Part shown: in pieces, positions 969 to 48,100 of the stretch
Numbering within the stretch: position 1 is the first letter of the stretch
How the letters are laid out: each line of letters begins with the position of its first letter
From: a virus
Virus genome (UHGV): UHGV-0214148
Reading direction: 5' to 3' (one strand)
DNA: 64,000 bases
The notes under the pieces: model-generated
What the model saw: only the letters and a program-made list of their open reading frames with translations
What the model was told of the DNA's origin: nothing
Database searches by the model: none
Translations under genes and position numbers: made by a program

Positions 969-1484
969 TTACCCCCGGTGCAAGAAAATACGGTTAGTGT
1001 TTTCGAATTTCGGTTCCGTCCACTCTAGTTCCCAGTAAGCCTGGTTAATATCGCGAGACGTAAGTTTCAAATTCGAAACGCCGGGGATATCGATCTGTTG
1101 CAGTAAATTAATAATCGTCATCAGCTCTTTACGAGGACGGTTCCAGATAACTTCAAGATATTCCTTTAGGCGTTCTGGGTAAGCGACAGGACGAATATAA
1201 ACTAACCCAGAAGGATACTCAATTGCTGAGGGCGTTCTTGGCACTAACCAAACCCAGTCTTTTAATAGCGGTCCTGGGTGATAGTTGGAGAGTTGGGTAA
1301 GCGCGTTTGCGACCGAACAGCAACGGAAGTAGGTGATATCCCAATCGCGTTCATGACAATTTCGCGCAACGATAACTTTTAAACGGTCAATAGGTTTACC
1401 GTCGATGGTCGTAACACCAGGTTGATTCGCCAGAATCTGACGTTCACGTTTAGTGTAAAGATTCATGTTAATATTTACTGACAT
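969..1484 (-). CDS. hypothetical protein (171 aa)
   Basis: ORF with AAAGGAG RBS 7 nt upstream of ATG. Confidence 0.8.
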   Translation of the reverse strand: MSVNINMNLYTKRERQILANQPGVTTIDGKPIDRLKVIVARNCHERDWDITYFRCCSVANALTQLSNYHPGPLLKDWVWLVPRTPSAIEYPSGLVYIRPVAYPERLKEYLEVIWNRPRKELMTIINLLQQIDIPGVSNLKLTSRDINQAYWELEWTEPKFENTNRIFLHRG

Positions 1485-3801: not shown

Positions 3802-5922
3802 TTAAATAACTACCCAGCTTTTGCCATCGGAACCAATCTGCATTAGCGTAATACTTTCATTGGTCTCAATGGGTTTGGCAAGACCTTCCGTCCCACTCTT
3901 TGGAGTGATGAGAACGTTTGAGTTTTCCGGTTTAACGATGATCTTACCAGCCTTATTTGCCACGATCTGTATATTTCTACCCACACTATATTCTAGATCA
4001 GGAATAGTAAGTTGGCCGCCACGGTTGGTGGCTGGGAAATACACATAAGACGACACATCTTCCTCAGATAACACTATACCACCAGAATCACGATTGACCG
4101 AGATCTCAAACTTAGAAATATCGATATCGTAGGCAGTAACTTTCGTAATATCTGTCAGAACCAATTCGTTCAAATCGGTATTAGCTGGACTGTTCGCCAG
4201 ATCAAACGGAGTGCCATTCTTGCCGTCAAGCACAGGTGTGACTTTGATTTTATTGTCACCCGGATAAATGATTTCAAGCGTATGCCAGTTATTATCGTAT
4301 GCACCAAAAGTTCCTAATTGCGCATTCTGCTTTTTATGATGCATCAGATAAAGATTCGTAGCGTCGGTCTGTAAGAAAAAAGACATTAGGTACGGGTTCG
4401 TCTTAGCCACACCAGCGTCAGCAAGTGTAGTACCAGAAGGTAGGTCGGACGCGGAAATACGCCAATAAAGTCCTAATCCGAAACGATCTGCTGCTAAATC
4501 ACCTTTTAGTCTAAAAGTAACGGTCAGACGTCCACCGTAACGTATCATGTCCGCAGCAGTCGCCATTGACTTAGTTACATTCCAAGGTTTCATCGTTACA
4601 GCCTTTCTTAATTCGACGAAATGCCCGTTTCCATCCTCAGTTTTTTGCACGGTTACGTTACAATCAACGATATTGTTCCAACCTTGCCCTTTCAGGGAAC
4701 CATCTCCACGACGACCGTTATAACCAACAGACTCTACTAATGGGGTATAGCTTCTTACCACATTCATATTGTCTTTGGAGCTCTTAGTGTCGTTCTTCGT
4801 CAGGAACATTGCACCAATCGCTGTTCTTGATAATATCTCGGCAGCTATTCTCTCTGAGATAATACCGCGTCGTGCCCAAGAACTGAAATGACTATTCCTT
4901 TCTGCAGACGTCCAGTTATCAGAACTACGGGAGGCAGCACCGTAATAGGCAGCACCAGTGATATTAGGATCGTCAGTGGGATCATTAGTCGGAACATGTT
5001 GGCCATTATCGTCGTACATGAATGGAACAAAAAAGATATTTTTTTGTTCGTTGTTACGATAATTACCGTATATGGTTTCATATTGAGCAGGATATTTTTC
5101 CTTCCAATAATAGGTAGTGTCCCCACAGATCCATGGTACTTCGGCGGTGGCGTACTCGGGCATCTGAGAGAGATGGTCAGAGAGATCAGTTCGGAAACGC
5201 TCTACCATTGCGTTAAATAACGCTGGTTGTTGTGCGTATTGTACTTTAGTCAGATCATACTCTCCCTGCATCCACACTACAGCCAAGAGTTTATTTTTAG
5301 GATTAACTTCCAGGGCTTTTTTGGTCCGGCTAACTAAATCTTTATAAAGCGGTTTGTCCACCCCCCATACCGATGACGCCGCAGAGGCTCCTGTGGCTTC
5401 ATCGAAGGTACCTTCTGCACCACCCGTGAAAGCAGAACCGCCGCGTGCGCAGGGTACTAGTAAGATACCGGCGTTCTTAGGAATATACGGGAGAAGACGC
5501 TTCGCGATATGAAGACCTTGACCCACACATCCGTATTCACCTTTGTCTAAATTGGCATTGGGATGCGAGTATTTGGACATATCTTGCACGTCGTGCAGAC
5601 AGTGATCCGCTGGAATGACGTCGTTATATTTACAATCAGCCCCATTAGGCGTTACCTTCGCACGGCGCGCCATCTGTTTAATTCGCGGATCGGGAGCGTC
5701 CAACGTCGCCGGTAGAGGCAACCCTTCACCATAACTCATCGCATTAGATTGCCCGGCTATAGGAATCACGAAGTAATACTCCGGCTCCGTCGTGCCCTGA
5801 AGTTTTGCAATATCAATTTTATATTCTTTTTCTTCCTTAGAAAGAAGAACTAACGCACCTTTGAGATCGCCAGAGAAATTGTCGAGTTCATGGATACGTT
5901 TCTTTCCAATTGGCTGACTCAT
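3802..5922 (-). CDS. tailspike / tail fibre protein with carbohydrate esterase (SGNH/SASA-like, GQSN motif) domain
   Basis: N-terminal about 35 aa is similar to the N-terminus of the 1479-aa fibre (shared anchor domain). Motif IPIAGQSNAMSYGEG resembles the catalytic GQSNM block of sialate-O-acetylesterase-type SGNH hydrolases found in esterase tailspikes. Confidence 0.6.
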   Translation of the reverse strand: MSQPIGKKRIHELDNFSGDLKGALVLLSKEEKEYKIDIAKLQGTTEPEYYFVIPIAGQSNAMSYGEGLPLPATLDAPDPRIKQMARRAKVTPNGADCKYNDVIPADHCLHDVQDMSKYSHPNANLDKGEYGCVGQGLHIAKRLLPYIPKNAGILLVPCARGGSAFTGGAEGTFDEATGASAASSVWGVDKPLYKDLVSRTKKALEVNPKNKLLAVVWMQGEYDLTKVQYAQQPALFNAMVERFRTDLSDHLSQMPEYATAEVPWICGDTTYYWKEKYPAQYETIYGNYRNNEQKNIFFVPFMYDDNGQHVPTNDPTDDPNITGAAYYGAASRSSDNWTSAERNSHFSSWARRGIISERIAAEILSRTAIGAMFLTKNDTKSSKDNMNVVRSYTPLVESVGYNGRRGDGSLKGQGWNNIVDCNVTVQKTEDGNGHFVELRKAVTMKPWNVTKSMATAADMIRYGGRLTVTFRLKGDLAADRFGLGLYWRISASDLPSGTTLADAGVAKTNPYLMSFFLQTDATNLYLMHHKKQNAQLGTFGAYDNNWHTLEIIYPGDNKIKVTPVLDGKNGTPFDLANSPANTDLNELVLTDITKVTAYDIDISKFEISVNRDSGGIVLSEEDVSSYVYFPATNRGGQLTIPDLEYSVGRNIQIVANKAGKIIVKPENSNVLITPKSGTEGLAKPIETNESITLMQIGSDGKSWVVI

Positions 5923-5925
5923 CTA

Positions 5926-6438
5926 CTACTCTCCAAAAGTTAAGATTTTATTGTCAAACGTCAACACGACAGAATCATCACCGATGCCACACGGTGTTTC
6001 ATCTGGGCCGAAAACCACCACGGAGAACTGTCCTTTATAAGCGATGGAATTTGGAGCGATGCTAAGCGTTACCGCGTCTTTACCTACCGTGAACGACTGG
6101 TCGGTTAAATCGTCGGTTTGTAAGTTAGCACCACAAACGGCATTGACGGATTCGATAAGATCGTGTGCATTAAACCCTTCACCTATTACTTTTACCAGAA
6201 TAGGTTGTTGGTTTAACCACCGCTCTGCGGTTAAACGGTTGTAGTAGATTTGCAACGTTCTGTTTCCAGGACGTTTAATCTTTACAATGGCAGTGGAGTC
6301 ACGATCCATTTCATCACTGGTTTTTACGTCACTGACTTCAACCTCGTTCTCTTGCAAGTCAAGTTGGAGGTCATGGTTAACCAGTGAAATAACCATGTTA
6401 AGTGAAGTTAGTGATAAATCTGGTGTGAATTTTTCCAC
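5926..6438 (-). CDS. tail-fibre-associated protein, paralog of 12527..13087 (GTG start)
   Basis: GTG start with AGGAGG RBS; clear similarity to 12527..13087 (PDLSL...LVNHD..., YY.RL.A...L...PIL, N..D....VN..CG.NLQ..DL); sits immediately upstream of a fibre gene. Confidence 0.7.
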   Translation of the reverse strand: MEKFTPDLSLTSLNMVISLVNHDLQLDLQENEVEVSDVKTSDEMDRDSTAIVKIKRPGNRTLQIYYNRLTAERWLNQQPILVKVIGEGFNAHDLIESVNAVCGANLQTDDLTDQSFTVGKDAVTLSIAPNSIAYKGQFSVVVFGPDETPCGIGDDSVVLTFDNKILTFGE

Positions 6439-6492: not shown

Positions 6493-6501
6493 CCCCCCCC
6501 C
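6493..6501. repeat. homopolymeric C9 tract (G9 on coding strand), intergenic between adhesin paralog and fibre-associated gene
   Basis: Read directly from sequence. Confidence 0.95.
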
Positions 6502-6535: not shown

Positions 6536-6979
6536 TTAGCTAATTCTCAAATCACGCAGTGCGCCTGTCGATTTCATCGCGTTTTGGAACGCGCCACTGA
6601 TGTTATTAGTCCAGTAATAATGCTGTCCGTTAATAACCTGCTGATAGGTCAGTGCGCAGGTGTTACCACCTAAATTTACGGTAATGTTAGAGGCTCTGCC
6701 TCCTTGTAAGTAAACCGCTAAAGTAGGCTTTGCGTTGGCAACTATCGTCGTTAACTGTAACTCAATACCTACTAAAGTTCCCACCCCGCAGTTACCCGCG
6801 TTTTGAATGGTTCCCTGATTTTTCTGGTTTAACGGCCAGCTTGGTCCTACCGCGCCCCATTTCTTACCTAAAGAATCGCTATATGCAGCGGTTGCAATTT
6901 TACAGCCCATAGATCTTCCCACCATTTGACTCATCATAAAAGGTCTACCCAATCCTAATTTACTACCAGCAGCGCTCAT
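6536..6979 (-). CDS. gp38-like tail-fibre adhesin paralog; annotated from internal ATG, true start probably ATG at 7044 disrupted by G10 tract
   Basis: Paralog of 7298..7843. Upstream ATG (7044..7042) with AGGAG RBS is followed by G10 then TAA; one extra G restores a 22-aa extension MGGGVTGSWVGSSAKNETGEQW that matches the N-terminus of the paralog. Confidence 0.6.
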   Translation of the reverse strand: MSAAGSKLGLGRPFMMSQMVGRSMGCKIATAAYSDSLGKKWGAVGPSWPLNQKNQGTIQNAGNCGVGTLVGIELQLTTIVANAKPTLAVYLQGGRASNITVNLGGNTCALTYQQVINGQHYYWTNNISGAFQNAMKSTGALRDLRIS

Positions 6980-7032
6980 CCATTGTTCGCCCGTTTCGTT
7001 CTTAGCCGAAGAACCGACCCACGAACCGGTTA

Positions 7033-7042
7033 CCCCCCCCCC
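7033..7042. repeat. homopolymeric C10 tract (G10 on coding strand) immediately after an ATG with AGGAG RBS; frameshifts the adhesin paralog N-terminus
   Basis: Read directly; minus strand AGGAGatcgcgATG-G9-TAA. Confidence 0.95.
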
Positions 7043-7056
7043 ATCGCGATCTCCTG

Positions 7057-7287
7057 TTAAGATTTTCTACATGTTATTGAATCGAAAGCACCACGCCCAA
7101 CCCAACGCCAATTATAATGATGATCAGCTTTATAAAGTGTGTATCTGCCCTGCTTTTTTACGTCGAAAATATTGATCGTAGTCTCTTCATTACCCAGCTT
7201 AGCTGTGCCGTAACATACAGGTTCGGGTAGTTGTTGACATCCACTTACTGTAAGCAATGCGAAACCCAGTAAAACTTTTCTTAACAT
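7057..7287 (-). CDS. small lipoprotein (76 aa; signal peptide with lipobox LTVSGC)
   Basis: N-terminal MLRKVLLGFALLTVSGC is a typical signal peptidase II substrate; located between the two adhesin paralogs. Confidence 0.65.
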   Translation of the reverse strand: MLRKVLLGFALLTVSGCQQLPEPVCYGTAKLGNEETTINIFDVKKQGRYTLYKADHHYNWRWVGRGAFDSITCRKS

Positions 7288-7297
7288 CTTTCTGTCC

Positions 7298-7843
7298 TTA
7301 GACTACACTTATTGAAATTGTTGCACCGTTCTGATTAAATAACCAGTTGGTTGCCGTCTTAGCCTCATAGCGCCGGACGCCGTTACTGTAAGAGTACGGT
7401 AGAAAAGTAATCTTCGTTCCGTTAAACGAAAGCGTAATATTCTGATTTGGTCCATTAGTTAGGGCCATGTAGATAATACCAGTATTTTGTACTTGGCTAA
7501 GATGTGTGACGCTACAACCCAAGATCGAACCTGACACCGAACCGGCCGCATTTTGTGTTTGCACACGATTCGATACTGTAGAACCAGCACCCGTTGTTGT
7601 AGAGTTGTTCGAATACCCCCCATACGTATTTGTAATAGGAACCCACTGCGTGTTCGTAGCCTGCACCAAAACAACATAGGTTGATCGGCCTACAACGAGT
7701 TTAAGATCCTCTACGCTACGCCCGACCATCTGCGACATGTTAAATGGTGTGCTCAGTTTAAGCTTATTACCTGCCACACTCATCCACTCCTGACCGGTTA
7801 CTGCCTTTGCTGAGCTTCCAACCCAGCCGGATGCTACCCCCAT
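7298..7843 (-). CDS. gp38-like tail-fibre tip adhesin (181 aa)
   Basis: N-terminus MGVASGWVGSSAKAVTGQEWMSVAG...MSQMVGRS resembles, from memory, the conserved fibre-attachment N-terminus of T2-type gp38 adhesins; directly downstream of the long fibre gene, as in T-even 37-38 order. Confidence 0.55.
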   Translation of the reverse strand: MGVASGWVGSSAKAVTGQEWMSVAGNKLKLSTPFNMSQMVGRSVEDLKLVVGRSTYVVLVQATNTQWVPITNTYGGYSNNSTTTGAGSTVSNRVQTQNAAGSVSGSILGCSVTHLSQVQNTGIIYMALTNGPNQNITLSFNGTKITFLPYSYSNGVRRYEAKTATNWLFNQNGATISISVV

Positions 7844-7884: not shown

Positions 7885-10800
7885 TTAATTCCCCTTGAGT
7901 TCTTTAAGCTCTTGGCGAAGAGTTTTCATGCCTTCTACTAACAACGCAATAACACCATTGTAATTTAGACGTAAACGTTTTTCGCCTGAAATGGCATCAT
8001 CATCCTCAGACACAAGCTCAGGTAACGCTTCTAGAGCGTCCTGAGCAATTAGACCTACAGAAGTCTGCCAGCCGTCGTCAGGATGCTGAATTTCGTACAA
8101 ATAACCGGTTAGTAACTCTAACCGATCCAAAGCCTTATCCAGCTTCACCAGATTACGTTTGTTACGACGGTCAGAACGAATCTGTACGTCGTTAAACGAA
8201 CCGTTACCGTTGCCAGTAACGTTATGTCCAAAGTTTACTTGGCCGTTAGAATTATTAAAAGACAACGGGCGTAATCCGTTCCAGGAACCCGCTGCGGCTT
8301 GTCCGGCGTCGGTTACTAAGAAATAGGTATTGGCACCGTCGTTACGTAAAATAAAACCGTAGGTACCGTAAGCGATTCGAAAATCAGGGTATTTAGTGGC
8401 CAATTTACCATTAACGGTTAAATCACCGCCTACAGTACCGCCCCCTGACGGTAACGCGCCCACTTCCGCAGCAGTTGGCTTGTTTCTCGTATTGTAAGCA
8501 CGACGCCAGCCTGGTGAGTATCCATCGCCGTTAAATACGTAGATAAACTCCGCATTAGTGAGTGCTCCGCCGACGCTCGTCGTTGTGGCGGTCGTTATAC
8601 GGATCGTGTAGTTGTTTGTGCTGTTGCCGTTACTAATGACTTCTATAACGGCCCCAGCTAACGGAATGACACCACAACCCGTCTCGCTGTGAGGTATGGA
8701 CGCACTGGCGGCATAAGCCCACGCACAGCGAGCAACCCACGATCTTGTGGTAAATGCGCCGTTATTTTTCAATAACGTCACTAGCTGTGCTGTAGTTATT
8801 GCACCGCCATTAGCGCCAGTTTCTAACCAACCACTAGGTGATGCCGGACAACCTATTTCGGCTGGCCCTAACGATATATTTCTAGTGCCATCAAACGCAA
8901 TACCATTGATGGTTCTTGCGGTTTGCAACTTTGTTGCCGTGGCTGCGTTTCCGGTGGTCGACTGATTCCCTGTTTGGTTTACTCCAGGTAAGTTGATGTC
9001 TTTAGTACCATCAAAAGCTACGCCACCTATATTTCGCGCAGTCTGGAGCTTAGTCGCAGTCGCAGCATTCCCCGTCGTCGATTGGTTACCGGTTTGGTTC
9101 ACACCGGGCAGACTAATGTCTTGCGAACCATCAAAGTTAATACCACCGATCTTACGTGGCGTTTGTAACTTAGTAGCGGTCGCTGCATTACCTGTCGTAT
9201 TCTGGTTACCTTGCTGGTTAACCCCCGGTAAATTGATATCCCCAGTACCGTCAAAGGTAACGCCCCCGATTCTGCGAGCAGTTTTCAGTTTCGTCGCGGT
9301 AGCAGCGTTACCAGTAGTATCTTGATTACCGGTGGTATTTACACCAGGAATACTATCACGGGCAGTATAAACTTGTGCCCAATCTGACCACGGCGCATCC
9401 GCTGTATCGCGTCGACTACGAATATAAACGGGTGCGTGCGCACCACTCGTGCCCGACCAACCGATTAACAGTTCACCTTCACCTAGCGCAGTAGAACCGC
9501 CCAAATGCAGCAAGTTACCATAAGCGGTCGGATAACCGTTATTGTAAACTTCGTACATCTGAATACCGGGTGTACCTTTGTTTGAACCGGTTAGTGCAGT
9601 AACCCGACCACGACCTACCAGGGTGTTGATATTGATGTCAGCAGAACCATCGAATCTCACACCGTTAATATTTCTGGCAGTTTGAAGTTTAGTGGCTGTC
9701 CCGGCATTACCCGTGGTGTTTTGATTACCCTGTTGGTTAACACCTGGGAGGTTAATATCAGCACTACCGTCGAAAGCGACTCCACCAATTCTACGTGCCG
9801 TCTTTAATTTCGTTGCGGTTGAAGCATTGCCTGTTAACTCGCCTGCTAACCCTTTTGCAAAGGTCTGTTTTTCTGCCCAGGTGTGTGCTGCATTCAATAC
9901 AGGCATCTGTCGTGGTGTAATCGTACGACTACCTTTCTCACCAGCGATACGTACTGCAAAGAATCGATAGTTGGCAGTAGACACCGTACTACGCCAAACC
10001 AACATACTCCGGCCTGATGTAGCGCCATCTGATGGACCAACCAGAATGCTAACTAAGTTACCGTCAATAACACCCCAATCCATTCCCGTAGGAATGTTTT
10101 TCATGGTGTTAAGCGGCGTACAGATTAACTCACCCGGTTTAAAGTCATAGGTTTGCCAGTCTAAAGGATCAACATTCGCACGTTCACCGCCGATACCTAA
10201 TACCAGCGGAAGCGAATACGATGTGAAAACCTCACGCCAATCGCTCCAAGCGTTACCCGTACGGATACGTTGGAATTTACGACCTTTAGTTTCTGTACCC
10301 GTACCGTATGTAGTATAATTCTGTTCGACCCCTGTACCGTCTAAGCGTAAGGTAACTTCACAAACGCCTAATATGGTTTCACCAGAAGAACCGGTAAGTG
10401 GACCGTTAGTTGCTTCACCAGTGACACTGAAACGTCCCGGTTTAACGAGATCGTTAAAATTGGCTTTAAAGAAAGCACCGTCAGTCTGATAACCAACCTG
10501 AATCCAATCTTCCCATTGCGGGTTTGATGAATCCCACGTTGCGGTCAAACCACGAACATACATCGTACCACGACGTGTGGTGTATCGCTGCAACCGTCCG
10601 AAAAGACCACCTTCCATTACTTCTAGTACGCCTTGCGCACCGCCACCTTCTTCAGGGTAATGTCTGCTAAAAACAGCCAGCGAACTGCTTGAGTTTCGCC
10701 AGTTACCCATATGCTCAGCGCCACCCAAACTGTTCAAGTCTATAGCGGTAGATAATGGACGTACACCAGTAGTTACCATTCTCCACGGCGACCAGGGTCC

Positions 10801-12324
10801 ATTGGCACCATTCCACTCGCCACTCAGCATACGGTTGTACACGTTACCATTACGACAGGTAAAACGCTGTGCACCACTGTAATTACCGGCTTTATACACT
10901 TCCAGATAACCGACTGCACCGTCTTCTGGGAAATGTTTTGCCATCGACGCATTGGTTGACGTCGACTTAGCCCACGTTCCTGTGTAATTGGCATCAGGAG
11001 CAAATGTGTTAATATCAGCATCTACAGGCATTTCGCCACGGAAACGTAGATAGGTGTCAGGAGACAGACCGATATTGCGAGCAAACGTTTCTTTATCTGG
11101 GATATCAGCGCCGTTAGAGTTTTTCTGTAACGCGCCATTCGCTTTATCTACAGTGGCTTTTAATCCCAAGAAATTGATGATATCCGCAGTTGACCCTTTC
11201 GCTAACAAGGATCTGGCCGTTTCTGTAAAATCCGTTAATCCGACTTTATTACTGCCAGTGAAATACATGAGTTTATTTGCCGCTGTGGTGACTGCGGCAA
11301 TGGCGGTGAGCAACGGACTGAGAGGTTGTTTCTGCGCAAGTTCCCCAGTAATCGTTGTTGCGAAGTTAGGGTCATTACCTAACGCCTCAGCTAATTCCGC
11401 TAAGGTATTTAACGTCTCGGGTGAAGAACCAACCAGTTCCGCAATCGCGTCACGCACCCAGGCCGTTGTGGAGATGCTCGTGTCGTTCGAGTCCTTCGGG
11501 GGTGTTGGGGATGACGGTTTACCCGTAAAATTCGGCGAATGTTTATTGGCTTTTAACTGTAATTCGTCATTCAGCTGTTTAACCGTGGACGGTGTGGCGG
11601 CCTCAGTCACGGATTCGCTAGTCAGTGTATCGTTAAGTTTAACGATACCTTTACCGGTCGTACTAGCGTCGATTAAGCCCTGCGCAGCGATTTTCTCCGC
11701 ACGTAAGGCAGCTGACTCCGAGCGTGTTGCTGCGCCTTCTGAACTTTCTTTATCTTTCGCGACCTGTGCAGCAATCTTCTCCACTGCGCCCTTACTGGCC
11801 TCAACTGAAGCCGCAGTATTCTCGACACCGGTAGCCGTCTGTTGGACTTGTCCGGCCTGTTGCGTAACCGTTTCTGCTTTCTTAGTTACATCAGCCGCTG
11901 CAGCCGTCACCGATTGTTCGCTTGTAGCGACAGCTTGAGCTTTCTCATTTACCGACTGTAATACAGTATCTACGGCAGTTTTCGCGGCTAAAACTTCAGC
12001 GTGTTTTTTGTTAACCTCAGCAGTTTTAGTGGCAACGGTTCCCGCTTGCTCGCTAACGGTGGAAGCTAACGTGTCAGTTTGTTGCTTCGCGGTTTCTGCT
12101 AAGTCTTTTGCTTGTGTGGCTTCTGTTGCAGACTGTTGTGATTTGGCCGCAGCCGTTTGTGCGTCAGCAACCGCGTTTCTGACGGTGTCAATATCCGCAA
12201 CAATCTCGCGGACAGGTAACTGATAATCCCTTTCGTCTTTCGAAAAAAGTAAAACGCCTTCACCGATATCCCCGGTGTATGGACGTAAATCGTGTAAACG
12301 AATTTTCTTTACCGCTTTAGCCAT
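7885..12324 (-). CDS. long tail fibre protein (1479 aa) with tandem fibre repeats and C-terminal intramolecular chaperone (peptidase S74-like) domain
   Basis: About 6 tandem repeats of the type TATKLQTAR-IGGV-FDG--DI-LPGVNQ-GNQ-TTGNAA; C-terminal ...SDRRNKRNLVKLDKALDRLELLTGYLYE... resembles the auto-cleaving chaperone domain of T5 pb1 and endosialidases; N-terminal coiled-coil and anchor region. Confidence 0.8.
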   Translation of the reverse strand: MAKAVKKIRLHDLRPYTGDIGEGVLLFSKDERDYQLPVREIVADIDTVRNAVADAQTAAAKSQQSATEATQAKDLAETAKQQTDTLASTVSEQAGTVATKTAEVNKKHAEVLAAKTAVDTVLQSVNEKAQAVATSEQSVTAAAADVTKKAETVTQQAGQVQQTATGVENTAASVEASKGAVEKIAAQVAKDKESSEGAATRSESAALRAEKIAAQGLIDASTTGKGIVKLNDTLTSESVTEAATPSTVKQLNDELQLKANKHSPNFTGKPSSPTPPKDSNDTSISTTAWVRDAIAELVGSSPETLNTLAELAEALGNDPNFATTITGELAQKQPLSPLLTAIAAVTTAANKLMYFTGSNKVGLTDFTETARSLLAKGSTADIINFLGLKATVDKANGALQKNSNGADIPDKETFARNIGLSPDTYLRFRGEMPVDADINTFAPDANYTGTWAKSTSTNASMAKHFPEDGAVGYLEVYKAGNYSGAQRFTCRNGNVYNRMLSGEWNGANGPWSPWRMVTTGVRPLSTAIDLNSLGGAEHMGNWRNSSSSLAVFSRHYPEEGGGAQGVLEVMEGGLFGRLQRYTTRRGTMYVRGLTATWDSSNPQWEDWIQVGYQTDGAFFKANFNDLVKPGRFSVTGEATNGPLTGSSGETILGVCEVTLRLDGTGVEQNYTTYGTGTETKGRKFQRIRTGNAWSDWREVFTSYSLPLVLGIGGERANVDPLDWQTYDFKPGELICTPLNTMKNIPTGMDWGVIDGNLVSILVGPSDGATSGRSMLVWRSTVSTANYRFFAVRIAGEKGSRTITPRQMPVLNAAHTWAEKQTFAKGLAGELTGNASTATKLKTARRIGGVAFDGSADINLPGVNQQGNQNTTGNAGTATKLQTARNINGVRFDGSADININTLVGRGRVTALTGSNKGTPGIQMYEVYNNGYPTAYGNLLHLGGSTALGEGELLIGWSGTSGAHAPVYIRSRRDTADAPWSDWAQVYTARDSIPGVNTTGNQDTTGNAATATKLKTARRIGGVTFDGTGDINLPGVNQQGNQNTTGNAATATKLQTPRKIGGINFDGSQDISLPGVNQTGNQSTTGNAATATKLQTARNIGGVAFDGTKDINLPGVNQTGNQSTTGNAATATKLQTARTINGIAFDGTRNISLGPAEIGCPASPSGWLETGANGGAITTAQLVTLLKNNGAFTTRSWVARCAWAYAASASIPHSETGCGVIPLAGAVIEVISNGNSTNNYTIRITTATTTSVGGALTNAEFIYVFNGDGYSPGWRRAYNTRNKPTAAEVGALPSGGGTVGGDLTVNGKLATKYPDFRIAYGTYGFILRNDGANTYFLVTDAGQAAAGSWNGLRPLSFNNSNGQVNFGHNVTGNGNGSFNDVQIRSDRRNKRNLVKLDKALDRLELLTGYLYEIQHPDDGWQTSVGLIAQDALEALPELVSEDDDAISGEKRLRLNYNGVIALLVEGMKTLRQELKELKGN
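8780..9850 (-). repeat. in-frame tandem coding repeats (~35 aa units) within the long tail fibre gene
   Basis: Repeated peptide motif visible in translation; also generates spurious antisense ORFs 8747..8965 and 8993..9325. Confidence 0.7.
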
Positions 12325-14474: not shown

Positions 14475-15167
14475 TTAGTAATCCTCTTCCTGATTCACTA
14501 CCGATTGGATACGGGATGCGACTTCGTTAGTGTCCAGGTCAGTTTCGTCTACCTTATCCACAAGTTTCTGTACTTTACGTACATGTGATTCGGTAATATC
14601 AAAACGACCACGATCGGCTAACAACAACGTTACCATGTCCTTACGTGTAACCATCAGTTCTTCTTCAGGTAAGTGTAAGGATTTGTCTAACAGACCCGAA
14701 TGCATGAAGTTTTCCAGTAAGCGTTCTTCCCCCTGGTCGAAATCATAACGTTCGTTAGGTGCAGCAACGAAAGCATAACCGAAGTAGTTTTCTTCCGTCT
14801 CACGTAGCGACTTGATGATTTTGTCACCGTGTTGACAGAAATCACTTAACGTGTAGTCGTCAAGCGTTGCCACGACGGTTTCTGCTTGCACACCATTATC
14901 TGTTTCGTACAGATGCGCAACCCACAGTTTCCAGTTACGTGGCTCGTCAAACAAACCACCGATTAACATATCGGTAGCCGCCATGCGCATACGCGGTGAC
15001 GTTGTAAACTGGAAACCACGACCTGCGTACGGACCGATAGGACGAATAGAGCTACCGACGAAAGTAATGCGGTTTAGCGCATTTTCAGCAATGGTGTGCG
15101 CAGTACGGTTAGCAGCGGCTTTCGGATTATACTTTTTGTTACGCGGTTTCTTTTGTTTGGTAGCCAT
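14475..15167 (-). CDS. hypothetical protein (230 aa)
   Basis: ORF track. Confidence 0.75.
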   Translation of the reverse strand: MATKQKKPRNKKYNPKAAANRTAHTIAENALNRITFVGSSIRPIGPYAGRGFQFTTSPRMRMAATDMLIGGLFDEPRNWKLWVAHLYETDNGVQAETVVATLDDYTLSDFCQHGDKIIKSLRETEENYFGYAFVAAPNERYDFDQGEERLLENFMHSGLLDKSLHLPEEELMVTRKDMVTLLLADRGRFDITESHVRKVQKLVDKVDETDLDTNEVASRIQSVVNQEEDY

Positions 15168-43559: not shown

Positions 43560-45854
43560 TTACTTACCAGCAGCAGCTTTGCCTTCGCCAGCAACGTTAC
43601 CTGCTACACCACCTTCGGTTTGTTTCTGACCGTTCTGTTCAACAGAAACATTGTAAGCCAGTTTTTCTTCAACCAGTTTGGTGATGCCTTTAACCCAGAT
43701 CAGACCAGTGATCGGGCAGTGGCAGATGTGCGCGTTACGCGGCTGTACGGCCAGCTCTTTAGAGGTAGAACCGTTACGCTGAATGTTGATGTTGGTAACC
43801 ATGATCGGAGACCAGAAGTGGTTACCCCAGTTCAGCACGTTGTAGGAACCATCGTCCGCAGTCGGAACTTTCAGGAACCATTGCAGACGACGAGTCCAGG
43901 AACCGTCAGCTGCGTTGTAGATACGCCAGCGGTCATCGTTGGTGGTGATCACTTCGTATTCGTAGCGATCGCCCAGCAGACGTTGGTCGCCCTGTACCAG
44001 CAGCAGCATAGATGCAGTCGGTTCGTCAGTTGCAATAACAACTTTCGGCAGAATGTCCGGATCGGCAGTGTACAGACGCAGCGCAGGAATGAAGCGAGAT
44101 TCCTGGATAGCCTGAGTTACCTGATTACCGATACGCTGTACCAGGCCCTGACGAGCGTTGATCAGTGCATCTTTGGTATCCAGGGACTGTACAACTTCAT
44201 CAACGTTGTAGTCAGACTCTTTGAACCACGGAGCAACCCAGTGACGGCCCAGACCACGAATGGCCGGTTTGTCCCACGGAGTGATCATGCTTGCAGCAGC
44301 GTTACGTACCGCTTCGGTGTAAGACAGCGTCTGAGTGATAGCCAGCTGTTCGTTACGGATGTTAACTGCGGAAATCAGGTCGTCCAGACGTTCGGTATCG
44401 TCGTATTCAACGCCAACCGGAGACTTGGTCAGGATCGGAGAACCGTATTGCAGTTTGTAGTTTTCTTGTTCCCAGATTGGGTCAAGCAGCAGACCCTGGG
44501 TACGACGGTTTTCGTTGGTACGAGTACCATCGAAGCGCCAGCCCATCAGTTCAAGTTTCAGACCGTCCAGGATAACTTTGCCGGTACCAGATTTGGTATC
44601 AACTTTGTTACCGGTAGCGTCGTACAGACCTTCGATTTCCAGTTTGTGACCAGCGATGTCAACTTTACCACCGAACTGACCGGTAGTGAACAGAGACATG
44701 TTGATGGTGATCACATAACGCAGGGTGTAGGAGTTCTGTTCCAGTGATTTCAGTGCCGGAATAGCTTCGCCTTTCCAGTCGGTGGTTTTCGCATTCAGAG
44801 AGAACGCAGTACGACGGAATTGCAGTACCAGCTCACGGCCATCACCTTCAGCAGGACGCTGGAAGGTTGCGAACTGCATGTCACGAACGTGCAGTTTGAT
44901 GAATTTACCTGCTTTCGCTTCTTCGGTCGGTTTACGTACGGAAATCAGCAGGCTGCCCAGAGCACAACCCGGTGCGATTTCATCAGTTTCGTCGTAACCT
45001 TCCTGAACGATACCCGGATGCGCAGACAGCTGGAACAGGTTCAGAGTGTCTTTAGCAAAGCTCAGGTAGTTAGTCGGGTACGGAGGTACACGACCCAGGC
45101 GAACAGATTCGTTCGGTACCAGTTCTTCGCTTACGAAGTATTCAGCGTTTTCACCGGTTTCCATTACGTAAGGAACGATGTTGATCGCTTCGTCCTGAAG
45201 AACGGTGTGGTCAGTCAGCGCTTCGTGCAGGTTACGACGATGATCTTCAACAACGTCTTTGGTCAGTAACGCGTGCATGACACCACGAGAAACGGTGGTC
45301 ACTTTGGTACGTACGGTAATACCAACATCGTTGGTGTCAACGGTGATGGTCGGGAACAGAGTCTCAGCAAAACGAGACTGAGTTTCCAGAGCACGTACGT
45401 TCAGCGTCCAGGTCAGACCCAGGTTTTTGTCGTAATCTTTGTTGGTGTAGTATTCCTGAGCAACAACCATACGCTCTTTGCCCCAGTCGCCGTTACCAGC
45501 TTGGGAACCAGGAATCGCAACGTCCAGGTTAAAACGGCTATGGAATTCTGGCTTAGCGTATTCTTGCGCTACTTTTTCTTGCAGGTCCATACCGTGACCA
45601 GCAGCACCCAGAATCATTGCAGAAGCAACTTCCGCAGCGTGGGACATTTTCTTACCGCCAGCAAACGCGTTTGCGTAGTGCTGTGCAGCATCGTCACGCA
45701 GGGTACCAAAAACTTTCGTGTTGCTACGTACAGACTCACCAGCAACGATGGTGTTCCACATTTCGCCAGCACTGTTGTTACTAATGACGCTTTGTACCAG
45801 CGAGTTACCAGCTTGTACGAGTTTCTCCAGATTAGAGATTCGGGTATCTTTCAT
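43560..45854 (-). CDS. highly expressed major virion protein candidate (764 aa; possibly major capsid protein)
   Basis: E. coli-optimal codon usage (CTG, CGT, GGT, AAC, GAA) contrasting with neighbours; strong bidirectional terminator immediately downstream. Function inferred only from size and expression signature. Confidence 0.85.
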   Translation of the reverse strand: MKDTRISNLEKLVQAGNSLVQSVISNNSAGEMWNTIVAGESVRSNTKVFGTLRDDAAQHYANAFAGGKKMSHAAEVASAMILGAAGHGMDLQEKVAQEYAKPEFHSRFNLDVAIPGSQAGNGDWGKERMVVAQEYYTNKDYDKNLGLTWTLNVRALETQSRFAETLFPTITVDTNDVGITVRTKVTTVSRGVMHALLTKDVVEDHRRNLHEALTDHTVLQDEAINIVPYVMETGENAEYFVSEELVPNESVRLGRVPPYPTNYLSFAKDTLNLFQLSAHPGIVQEGYDETDEIAPGCALGSLLISVRKPTEEAKAGKFIKLHVRDMQFATFQRPAEGDGRELVLQFRRTAFSLNAKTTDWKGEAIPALKSLEQNSYTLRYVITINMSLFTTGQFGGKVDIAGHKLEIEGLYDATGNKVDTKSGTGKVILDGLKLELMGWRFDGTRTNENRRTQGLLLDPIWEQENYKLQYGSPILTKSPVGVEYDDTERLDDLISAVNIRNEQLAITQTLSYTEAVRNAAASMITPWDKPAIRGLGRHWVAPWFKESDYNVDEVVQSLDTKDALINARQGLVQRIGNQVTQAIQESRFIPALRLYTADPDILPKVVIATDEPTASMLLLVQGDQRLLGDRYEYEVITTNDDRWRIYNAADGSWTRRLQWFLKVPTADDGSYNVLNWGNHFWSPIMVTNINIQRNGSTSKELAVQPRNAHICHCPITGLIWVKGITKLVEEKLAYNVSVEQNGQKQTEGGVAGNVAGEGKAAAGK

Positions 45855-48070: not shown

Positions 48071-48100
48071 CAGGGGGTGGTAGCAACACCCCCTTTATTA
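48071..48100 (+). terminator. plus-strand terminator after 46405..47967
   Basis: GGGGGTGGT...ACCCCC + TTTATTA. Confidence 0.6.

Follow-up and report, generated by a model that had tools for sequence, protein, structure and literature searches.

Introduction

In Campylobacter Fletchervirus phages, polyG tracts make the expression of receptor-binding proteins (RBPs) phase variable: a G homopolymer in a host-recognition gene toggles the reading frame, and mixed populations result (Sorensen 2021, Cell Rep 35:109214, as summarized in PMC10579305 and PMC10877375). Here we analyze a locus that follows the same logic. It lies in a 64,000-nucleotide (nt) stretch of the viral genome UHGV-0214148 (referred to as the window; positions are counted from its first nucleotide), where a run of ten G begins in the start codon of a tail fiber adhesin gene, which we call adhesin B. 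Several features set it apart from the Campylobacter system: the phage is a jumbo phage of gut Enterobacteriaceae, the tract occupies codons 2 to 4 and sits on the start codon, the product is a small Gp38_N tip adhesin with a constitutive paralog (adhesin A) encoded beside it, and the evidence is comparative, not experimental. A preliminary description of the window had named the Campylobacter phages as the known case of polyG-driven RBP variation, which agrees with Sorensen 2021 as cited in PMC10579305.

In enterobacterial phages, contingency loci have been described in the coliphages T2 and T4 (Gomez, Barrick & Waters, bioRxiv 10.1101/2025.10.21.683753). There, reversible frameshifting of phage genes by polymerase slippage was proposed to serve bet-hedging, as we propose here. 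According to the same preprint, the two loci characterized are A runs (six A in rIIA and a nine-base span in agt), mutant frequencies in read data are approximately 1e-4 to 1e-3, and repeats are under-represented in coliphage tail fiber genes. In the present locus, by contrast, the run of 7 to 11 G is part of an adhesin gene, and natural populations as a whole are dominated by different lengths. The earlier statement that such a switch would be unusual for an enterobacterial phage therefore needs qualification: contingency loci are now reported in T2 and T4, but these are A runs in agt and rIIA.

The same architecture, a polyG or polyC tract early in the open reading frame (ORF), and the same presumed slipped-strand mechanism are found in contingency genes of Campylobacter, Neisseria, and Haemophilus. 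Here, however, the tract is virus borne and replicated by the phage machinery. Since virions are built from the protein pool of the infected cell, phenotype and packaged genotype may uncouple for one generation. The invertible G segment of Mu and C segment of P1, as well as the diversity-generating retroelement of Bordetella phage BPP-1, achieve the same outcome, alternative receptor-binding proteins in one lineage, but they use a recombinase or a reverse transcriptase, whereas repeat slippage alone would suffice here. In open-access papers and preprints, we did not come across a description of an adhesin gated by polyG for either enterobacterial or jumbo phages.

Results

A G10 tract separates the start codon of adhesin B from its reading frame

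On the minus strand, the start region of adhesin B reads ...cttaaCAGGAGatcgcgATGGGGGGGGGGTAAccggttcgtgggtcgg. The TAA of the upstream gene, which encodes a Cor-like protein, is located at positions 7059-7057, just 5' of an AGGAG Shine-Dalgarno sequence (7055-7051). A 6-nt spacer follows, and then the ATG (7044-7042) that serves as the start codon in assemblies with G8 or G11. The third base of this ATG is the first G of the homopolymer (7042-7033; C10 on the plus strand), and directly after the run, a TAA (7032-7030) closes the four-codon frame in the G10 or G7 state. As the preliminary description had it, the ATG frame with G10 encodes only M-G-G-G-stop behind an AGGAG ribosome binding site, and this arrangement is present on the minus strand at positions 7055-7030.

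Translation of 7033..6536, which starts with GTA, yields VTGSWVGSSAKNETGEQWMSAAG... and is open through into the ORF 6536..6979. Indeed, one G more or two fewer restore the frame, as had been claimed; the ATG is joined to the downstream frame only if the run comprises 5, 8, or 11 G. The body of adhesin B (6536..7033, minus strand; 165 codons plus the stop codon) is thus in the frame of G5, G8, and G11. Between the run and the ATG at 6979, the downstream frame contains no ATG, GTG, or TTG, and the first in-frame start after the tract is at 6977..6979. A product begun at 6979 would start 22 residues into the restored G11 protein and thereby lose approximately half of the Gp38_N domain. A peptide expected of the on-form of adhesin B is GGGVTGSWVGSSAK.

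Runs of at least nine G or C occur three times in the window (7033-7042, 6493-6501, and 1511-1519). Counted as overlapping G8 matches, 7 were observed and 0.69 expected, and in 100 dinucleotide-preserving shuffles, the count always stayed below 7. We conclude that the long G/C runs (at least 8) in the window are not due to chance.

Tract length varies between nearly identical genomes

The same phage was traced by exact-protein look-up with adhesin A in human-gut metagenome assemblies (179 index blocks of the collection). Every run length given below is an assembly consensus and not a read-level measurement. Five lengths were found in 14 samples: 10 G in five samples, 9 G in four, and 7 G in one, all of which are off states, as well as 11 G in three samples and 8 G in one, which are on states. 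In line with this, the gene callers' product was 168 amino acids (aa) for G8 or 169 aa for G11, with Gp38_N, and otherwise a 124-aa fragment.

When 11 copies of a 6.5-kb stretch were aligned, small indels were present only at G runs, and the sole other indel was a 120-nt repeat difference in the tail fiber gene. Within these 6.5 kb, tract lengths differed between nearly identical genomes: 8 versus 9 G at 0 single-nucleotide polymorphisms (SNPs), 11 versus 9 G at 1 SNP, and 10 versus 9 G at 2 SNPs. The 0-SNP pair consists of ERZ28648449/SAMN26286073 (8 G) and ERZ28647640/SAMN26286629 (9 G); further assembly pairs are ERZ28646058 versus ERZ28644647 and ERZ28649922 versus ERZ28646475. The G5 of adhesin A showed no indel in 21 loci. 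When the commonest allele of adhesin B was counted by its exact products, the off fragment was found on 54 contigs, the G8 on-form on 12, and the G11 on-form on 6, and no G5 or G14 forms were among them. The window itself is in the off state (G10), and its own allele occurs as the G11 on-form on one Logan contig. In these consensus assemblies, length polymorphism among nearly identical genomes is far above the background rate of indels, and on (G8, G11) and off (G7, G9, G10) states both occur in nature with intact gene bodies, as is characteristic of contingency loci.

Could the lengths be errors of sequencing or assembly, the true run always being in frame (G8 or G11)? G runs of at least nine are error prone, and one Logan contig ends within a G run. 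Furthermore, the lengths of this tract and of a second one (see below) covary weakly, and one sample has an additional G at three runs compared to its 0-SNP twin. On the other hand, the modal length is an off length (10, followed by 9), there are five lengths in all, and off and on calls stand at 3:1 across 72 contigs, to which two assembly resources (ENA and Logan) contributed. Loci of 6.5 to 20 kb have no coding indels except the 120-nt repeat, G5 runs are invariant, an independent IMG/VR contig carries an in-frame G8 that arose from a G5 seed, and a complete RefSeq record has G10 at the second tract. We regard miscalling as the source of the off states as very improbable.

The body of adhesin B is under purifying selection

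The 165-codon body was intact in 15 of 15 sequences, whatever the state of the run. The ratio of nonsynonymous to synonymous substitution rates (dN/dS) was 0.11 to 0.14 in the tract-bearing lineage and 0.07 to 0.36 in comparison with tract-less orthologs. Four tract-bearing alleles differed at 8 synonymous and 4 nonsynonymous sites, while 1:3.5 is expected under neutrality (P = 0.0013). This shows that the body of adhesin B is under purifying selection and is not a decaying pseudogene. Moreover, the run was uninterrupted in strains with approximately 6% divergence in the flanking DNA.

These data bear on the explanation that the run expanded neutrally in an adhesin made redundant by adhesin A, with the frame drifting, no adaptive bet-hedging, and the gene heading for loss. 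In agreement with it, the on fraction of 25 to 29% fits the 1/3 of a random frame, off states dominate (54 of 72 contigs), and long G runs have also grown from G5 seeds at several noncoding sites (the second and third tracts and the G10 runs of loci L056 and L049, all described below). Against it stand a body free of second lesions in all 15 sequences, an excess of synonymous substitutions accumulated in the presence of the tract, low dN/dS, and a run that stays uninterrupted at approximately 6% flank divergence. We consider neutral instability unlikely. With 7 to 11 G, both frames, nearly identical backgrounds, and an intact, constrained body, the comparative data favor the stochastic on/off switch that the preliminary description had envisaged.

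The tract arose within ancestral coding sequence

All homologs start with MGV(A/T)SGWVGSSAK. Numbered from the V after the tract, residues V1, W5, V6, G7, S8, S9, A10, K11, T14, G15, and W18 are invariant. At the tract position, most relatives have G5; the starts found are ATGGGGGTA (G5, in frame) or ATGGC and ATGGGA. In SSU5-like phage-plasmids, the start is ATGGGGGTAACA, again with G5 in frame, and the starts in other jumbo relatives are ATGGGGGTAGCG, ATGGCGGTT, ATGGCTGTA, or ATGGGAGTA. One independent jumbo-phage contig from IMG/VR (224.8 kb) has ATGGGGGGGGTAGCG, with G8 in frame, and on both sides of the run this contig is nearly identical to one with G5. From the G5 in relatives and this expansion to G8, it follows that the run grew from the G5 of Met-Gly-Val codons. 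The shared N terminus, together with an in-frame G5 or no run at all in relatives, places the tract inside an ancestral coding region, as had been suspected from the window alone.

Runs of at least 8 G were found only in genomes with another Gp38_N adhesin gene upstream, and single-adhesin genomes have G5, ATGGCGG, or ATGGGAG at the start; both statements are based on a small sample.

A Megablast search of the locus against the phage collection returned only a 135-nt match to an SSU5-like record, and the plasmid collection contained one relative with 83% identity in addition to SSU5-like phage-plasmids. The match links window positions 6887-7021, in the region for the N-terminal part of adhesin B, with positions 4001-4135 of locus L002 (96% identity over 135 nt). 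The matched sequence belongs to the adhesin gene of otherwise unrelated SSU5-like phage-plasmids of Escherichia coli O104:H4 and Shigella sonnei. Judged from the nucleotide identity, this points to a recent exchange of an attachment-domain module. Complete E. coli genomes contained no member of the lineage with the window's order of adhesin A, Cor, and adhesin B, only a G5 relative, and a pattern scan for the tract and its flanking sequence in Joint Genome Institute (JGI) metagenome contigs was negative.

Adhesins A and B share an attachment domain

Restored adhesin B matches Pfam Gp38_N (PF21721) at residues 4-42 with an E value of 6.8e-19, above the curated cutoff, and adhesin A (7298..7843, minus strand; 181 aa) matches it with 2.4e-20. 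Adhesin A is always in frame and starts with ATGGGGGTA, which contains G5. Both proteins match phrog_1121 ("tail fiber adhesin"), adhesin A over its full length. The residue-for-residue similarity noted between the N termini was reproduced: 29 of 43 residues (67%) are identical, with an E value of 1e-16. The C-terminal domains of the two adhesins differ from each other.

The N-terminal domain of adhesin B also matched T-even gp38 genes in tblastn. As in gp38 adhesins of the T2/S16 type (PF21721 plus PF05268), the attachment domain is N terminal and the gene is located just downstream of a long tail fiber gene. However, the glycine-rich GP38 domain (PF05268) was not detected in adhesin A or B by Pfam search, and the C-terminal part of adhesin B is instead an approximately 125-residue predicted beta-sandwich. 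The designation of adhesin B as a gp38-like paralog is hence accurate for the N-terminal domain (Gp38_N, phrog_1121) and does not extend to the C-terminal one. In a close relative of this phage, the position of adhesin A is occupied by a classical GP38 protein (261 aa; PF05268 at 7e-68).

Within the body of adhesin B, the Gp38_N attachment domain corresponds to residues 1-40. An AlphaFold (AF2) monomer model, calculated from nine sequences, had a mean predicted local distance difference test (pLDDT) score of 79, with a confident beta-sandwich at residues 44-165 and a poorly defined stretch of 40 residues at the N terminus. A PDB sequence search and a Foldseek search with this model revealed no significant solved relative. 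In phages of the T2/S16 type, Gp38_N anchors the adhesin at the tip of the fiber, and A and B would both attach to the same fiber tip.

The fiber gene upstream of adhesin A (7885..12324, minus strand; 1,479 aa) encodes a protein with Phage_fiber_2 and Gp34_trimer domains and a C-terminal Peptidase_S74 chaperone, in which it differs from T-even gp37. The fiber gene is followed by the adhesin gene(s) not only in the window but also in jumbo-phage relatives and SSU5-like phage-plasmids, and because of this order we presume that this fiber is the carrier of the Gp38_N adhesins. The 120-nt (40-aa) difference in repeat number mentioned above is located in the fiber gene near window position 9108, inside the GNQ.TTGNAATATKLQTAR repeat region, and results in products of 1,439 or 1,479 aa among strains.

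Proposed model for the switching of adhesin B

We propose that the G run is probably a slipped-strand contingency tract gating the accessory adhesin B, while adhesin A is constitutive. Slipped-strand mispairing during replication would add or remove G residues at high frequency, and with such frequent slippage the lineage would keep yielding mixed B-on and B-off genomes. Runs of G5, G8, or G11 would give full adhesin B with one to three extra glycines, G7 and G10 a peptide of 3 to 4 residues, and G9 a peptide of 13 residues. In a B-on infection, the fibers of the virions would carry B beside or instead of A, and this would presumably change the range of hosts that can be adsorbed. Because adhesin A is available in every state, off states would be tolerated, as they are in approximately three quarters of the assemblies.

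Several points weigh against this model. All lengths come from consensus short-read assemblies. Across samples, the first and the second tract show a weak correlation in length (r = 0.48, p = 0.08), and in one 0-SNP pair, three G runs differ by +1 simultaneously, including a change from G6 to G7 in the esterase gene; a technical contribution is therefore possible. The T-tails of terminators vary too among strains, by a base or more (one T9/T10 tail by one base among strains 50 to 900 SNPs apart), and some of the instability is therefore generic. The on fraction (4/14 samples and 18/73) is not different from the neutral 1/3 and thus gives no direct sign of selection on the frame state. Finally, PDB and fold searches gave nothing that ties adhesin B to the fiber or to a receptor.

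The position of the tract also invites an explanation in which recoding acts instead of, or in addition to, switching at the DNA level: the phage RNA polymerase slips on the run, or the ribosome, with TAA in its A site, shifts by -1 on G GGG GGG, so that off genotypes still make some adhesin B and the run length sets its dosage. The stop codon directly follows the run, and the target frame is -1 relative to the ATG frame; a -1 slip in the P site onto an identical GGG codon would be sterically trivial. Moreover, the frame looks neutral in the population, as expected if all lengths express some protein. The G9 state, however, would require the opposite shift, the best-documented cases of efficient transcriptional slippage involve A/T runs, and the demonstrated polymorphism of the DNA is sufficient on its own. 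We consider recoding quite unlikely and retain DNA-level slippage as the preferred model.

Other variable homopolymers

The second tract (6493-6501, minus strand) is an intergenic G9 run, 55 nt upstream of the GTG start codon of a gene for a DUF7941 protein. It is as variable in length as the first tract: 9 to 11 G were found in every close relative examined, with G10 in a RefSeq E. coli "plasmid", and an Enterobacter record has G5. RNA folding (z = -3.8) predicts that this tract pairs with CCCCC..CCUU directly 5' of the downstream Shine-Dalgarno sequence, and the run length might therefore tune the expression of the next gene. The third tract (1511-1519) is intergenic as well and is a C9 run on the coding (minus) strand, approximately 20 nt upstream of the ribosome binding site of ORF 969..1484. 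It comprises C8 to C10 in one haplotype group and is replaced by CACCACC in others.

In the esterase gene, a G6 (5361-5366, minus strand) becomes G7 in one 0-SNP assembly (position 5478 of locus L044), which splits the 706-aa SASA-esterase into products of 193 and 533 aa. Either this site is prone to frameshifts as well, or G runs were miscalled in that sample. Near window position 48094, an intergenic AATAAA-G(n)-TG contains G10 in locus L056, compared to G5 in the window and eight other genomes and G4 in one. In another lineage (locus L049), a hairpin is closed by the G10 at position 14925. Within this phage family, the growth of long G runs from short seeds seems to be a recurrent event.

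Six SSU5-like phage-plasmids from isolate genomes (loci L021, L023, L024, L026, L030, and L034) have G runs of their own, of 7, 8, 8, 10, 9, and 8 G, respectively. These runs are located at position ~4074, at a distance of approximately 1.07 kb from the start of the adhesin gene, and the sequence upstream of them is identical. Beyond the run, two of the SSU5-like loci differ in sequence, and in at least one locus (L023), IS1-like sequence is found approximately 0.9 kb further on.

The window also contains seven A/T runs of 9 to 10 (27776, 38157, 38212, 43506, 48018, 56203, and 58716). All seven are T-tails of GC-hairpin terminators and are therefore a separate, ordinary feature. The four tails that are covered by aligned strains range from 6 to 10 in length. 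Homopolymers of length 8 are entirely missing from the window, which makes the distribution of lengths bimodal. Poor sequence in general was considered as a source of the homopolymers and rejected: the A/T runs are all terminator tails, and the 120-nt fiber repeat accounts for the only coding indels.

With at least three G/C runs within 6 kb, we tentatively raise the possibility of a small "phasome" of the host-recognition module. Its sites would be the start of adhesin B, the region upstream of the DUF7941 and esterase genes, and the region upstream of ORF 969..1484; at each of them, a short seed has expanded and the length is polymorphic in nature. If this were true, it would provide combinatorial diversity of the virion surface during long carrier-state coexistence with gut Enterobacteriaceae.

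Gene neighborhood and identity of the phage

The two adhesin genes are separated by a gene for a Cor-type superinfection-exclusion lipoprotein (7057..7287, minus strand; 76 aa), which has the lipobox VSGC and matches phrog_1119 (E = 1.3e-25). A Cor gene in this position was thus observed in a jumbo phage. Cor of T1/phi80-type phages blocks FhuA. This hints at a joint arrival of adhesin A and Cor as one module and at FhuA, or an outer-membrane protein like it, as a possible target of adhesin A. Downstream of adhesin B and of the second tract, the minus strand carries the gene for the DUF7941 virion structural protein (5926..6438; assigned by Pfam and PHROG), followed by the gene for the 706-aa SASA-esterase protein (3802..5922).

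The phage is an approximately 225-kb jumbo phage of Enterobacteriaceae of the phiKZ/SPN3US type ("Seoul-like"), with contigs of 223 to 226 kb and approximately 73% nucleotide identity to the phages Asesino, SPN3US-like phages, and SEGD1. Furthermore, PF25620 (PhiKZ_MCP) was matched on an ortholog of the window ORF 43560..45854. Members of the adhesin cluster are annotated from isolate assemblies of Shigella, Salmonella, and E. coli, on contigs of approximately 225 kb. Two close relatives (loci L001 and L071) are on record as circular "plasmids" of 222 kb each, one from Enterobacter ludwigii and the other from E. coli. For a jumbo phage of virulent type, such plasmid records and isolate contigs are consistent with a persistent carrier state. 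"Persistent Seoul-like jumbo phages" have been described (bioRxiv 10.1101/2024.12.31.630880), and the relatives filed as plasmids fit these.

Discussion

Experimental proof of RBP phase variation by homopolymer slippage has so far been obtained only for Campylobacter phages, and contingency loci of coliphages were proposed only recently, from laboratory stocks. The locus analyzed here belongs to an uncultured, widespread gut jumbo phage, in which some natural samples are dominated by on alleles and others by off alleles. If confirmed, the switch would explain why this adhesin is annotated as a fragment in approximately three quarters of the assemblies. The run can be locked with GGA/GGT codons, which provides a simple handle on the question of how two adhesins share one fiber. 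Confirmation would also mean that phages in the gut hedge their bets on host range.

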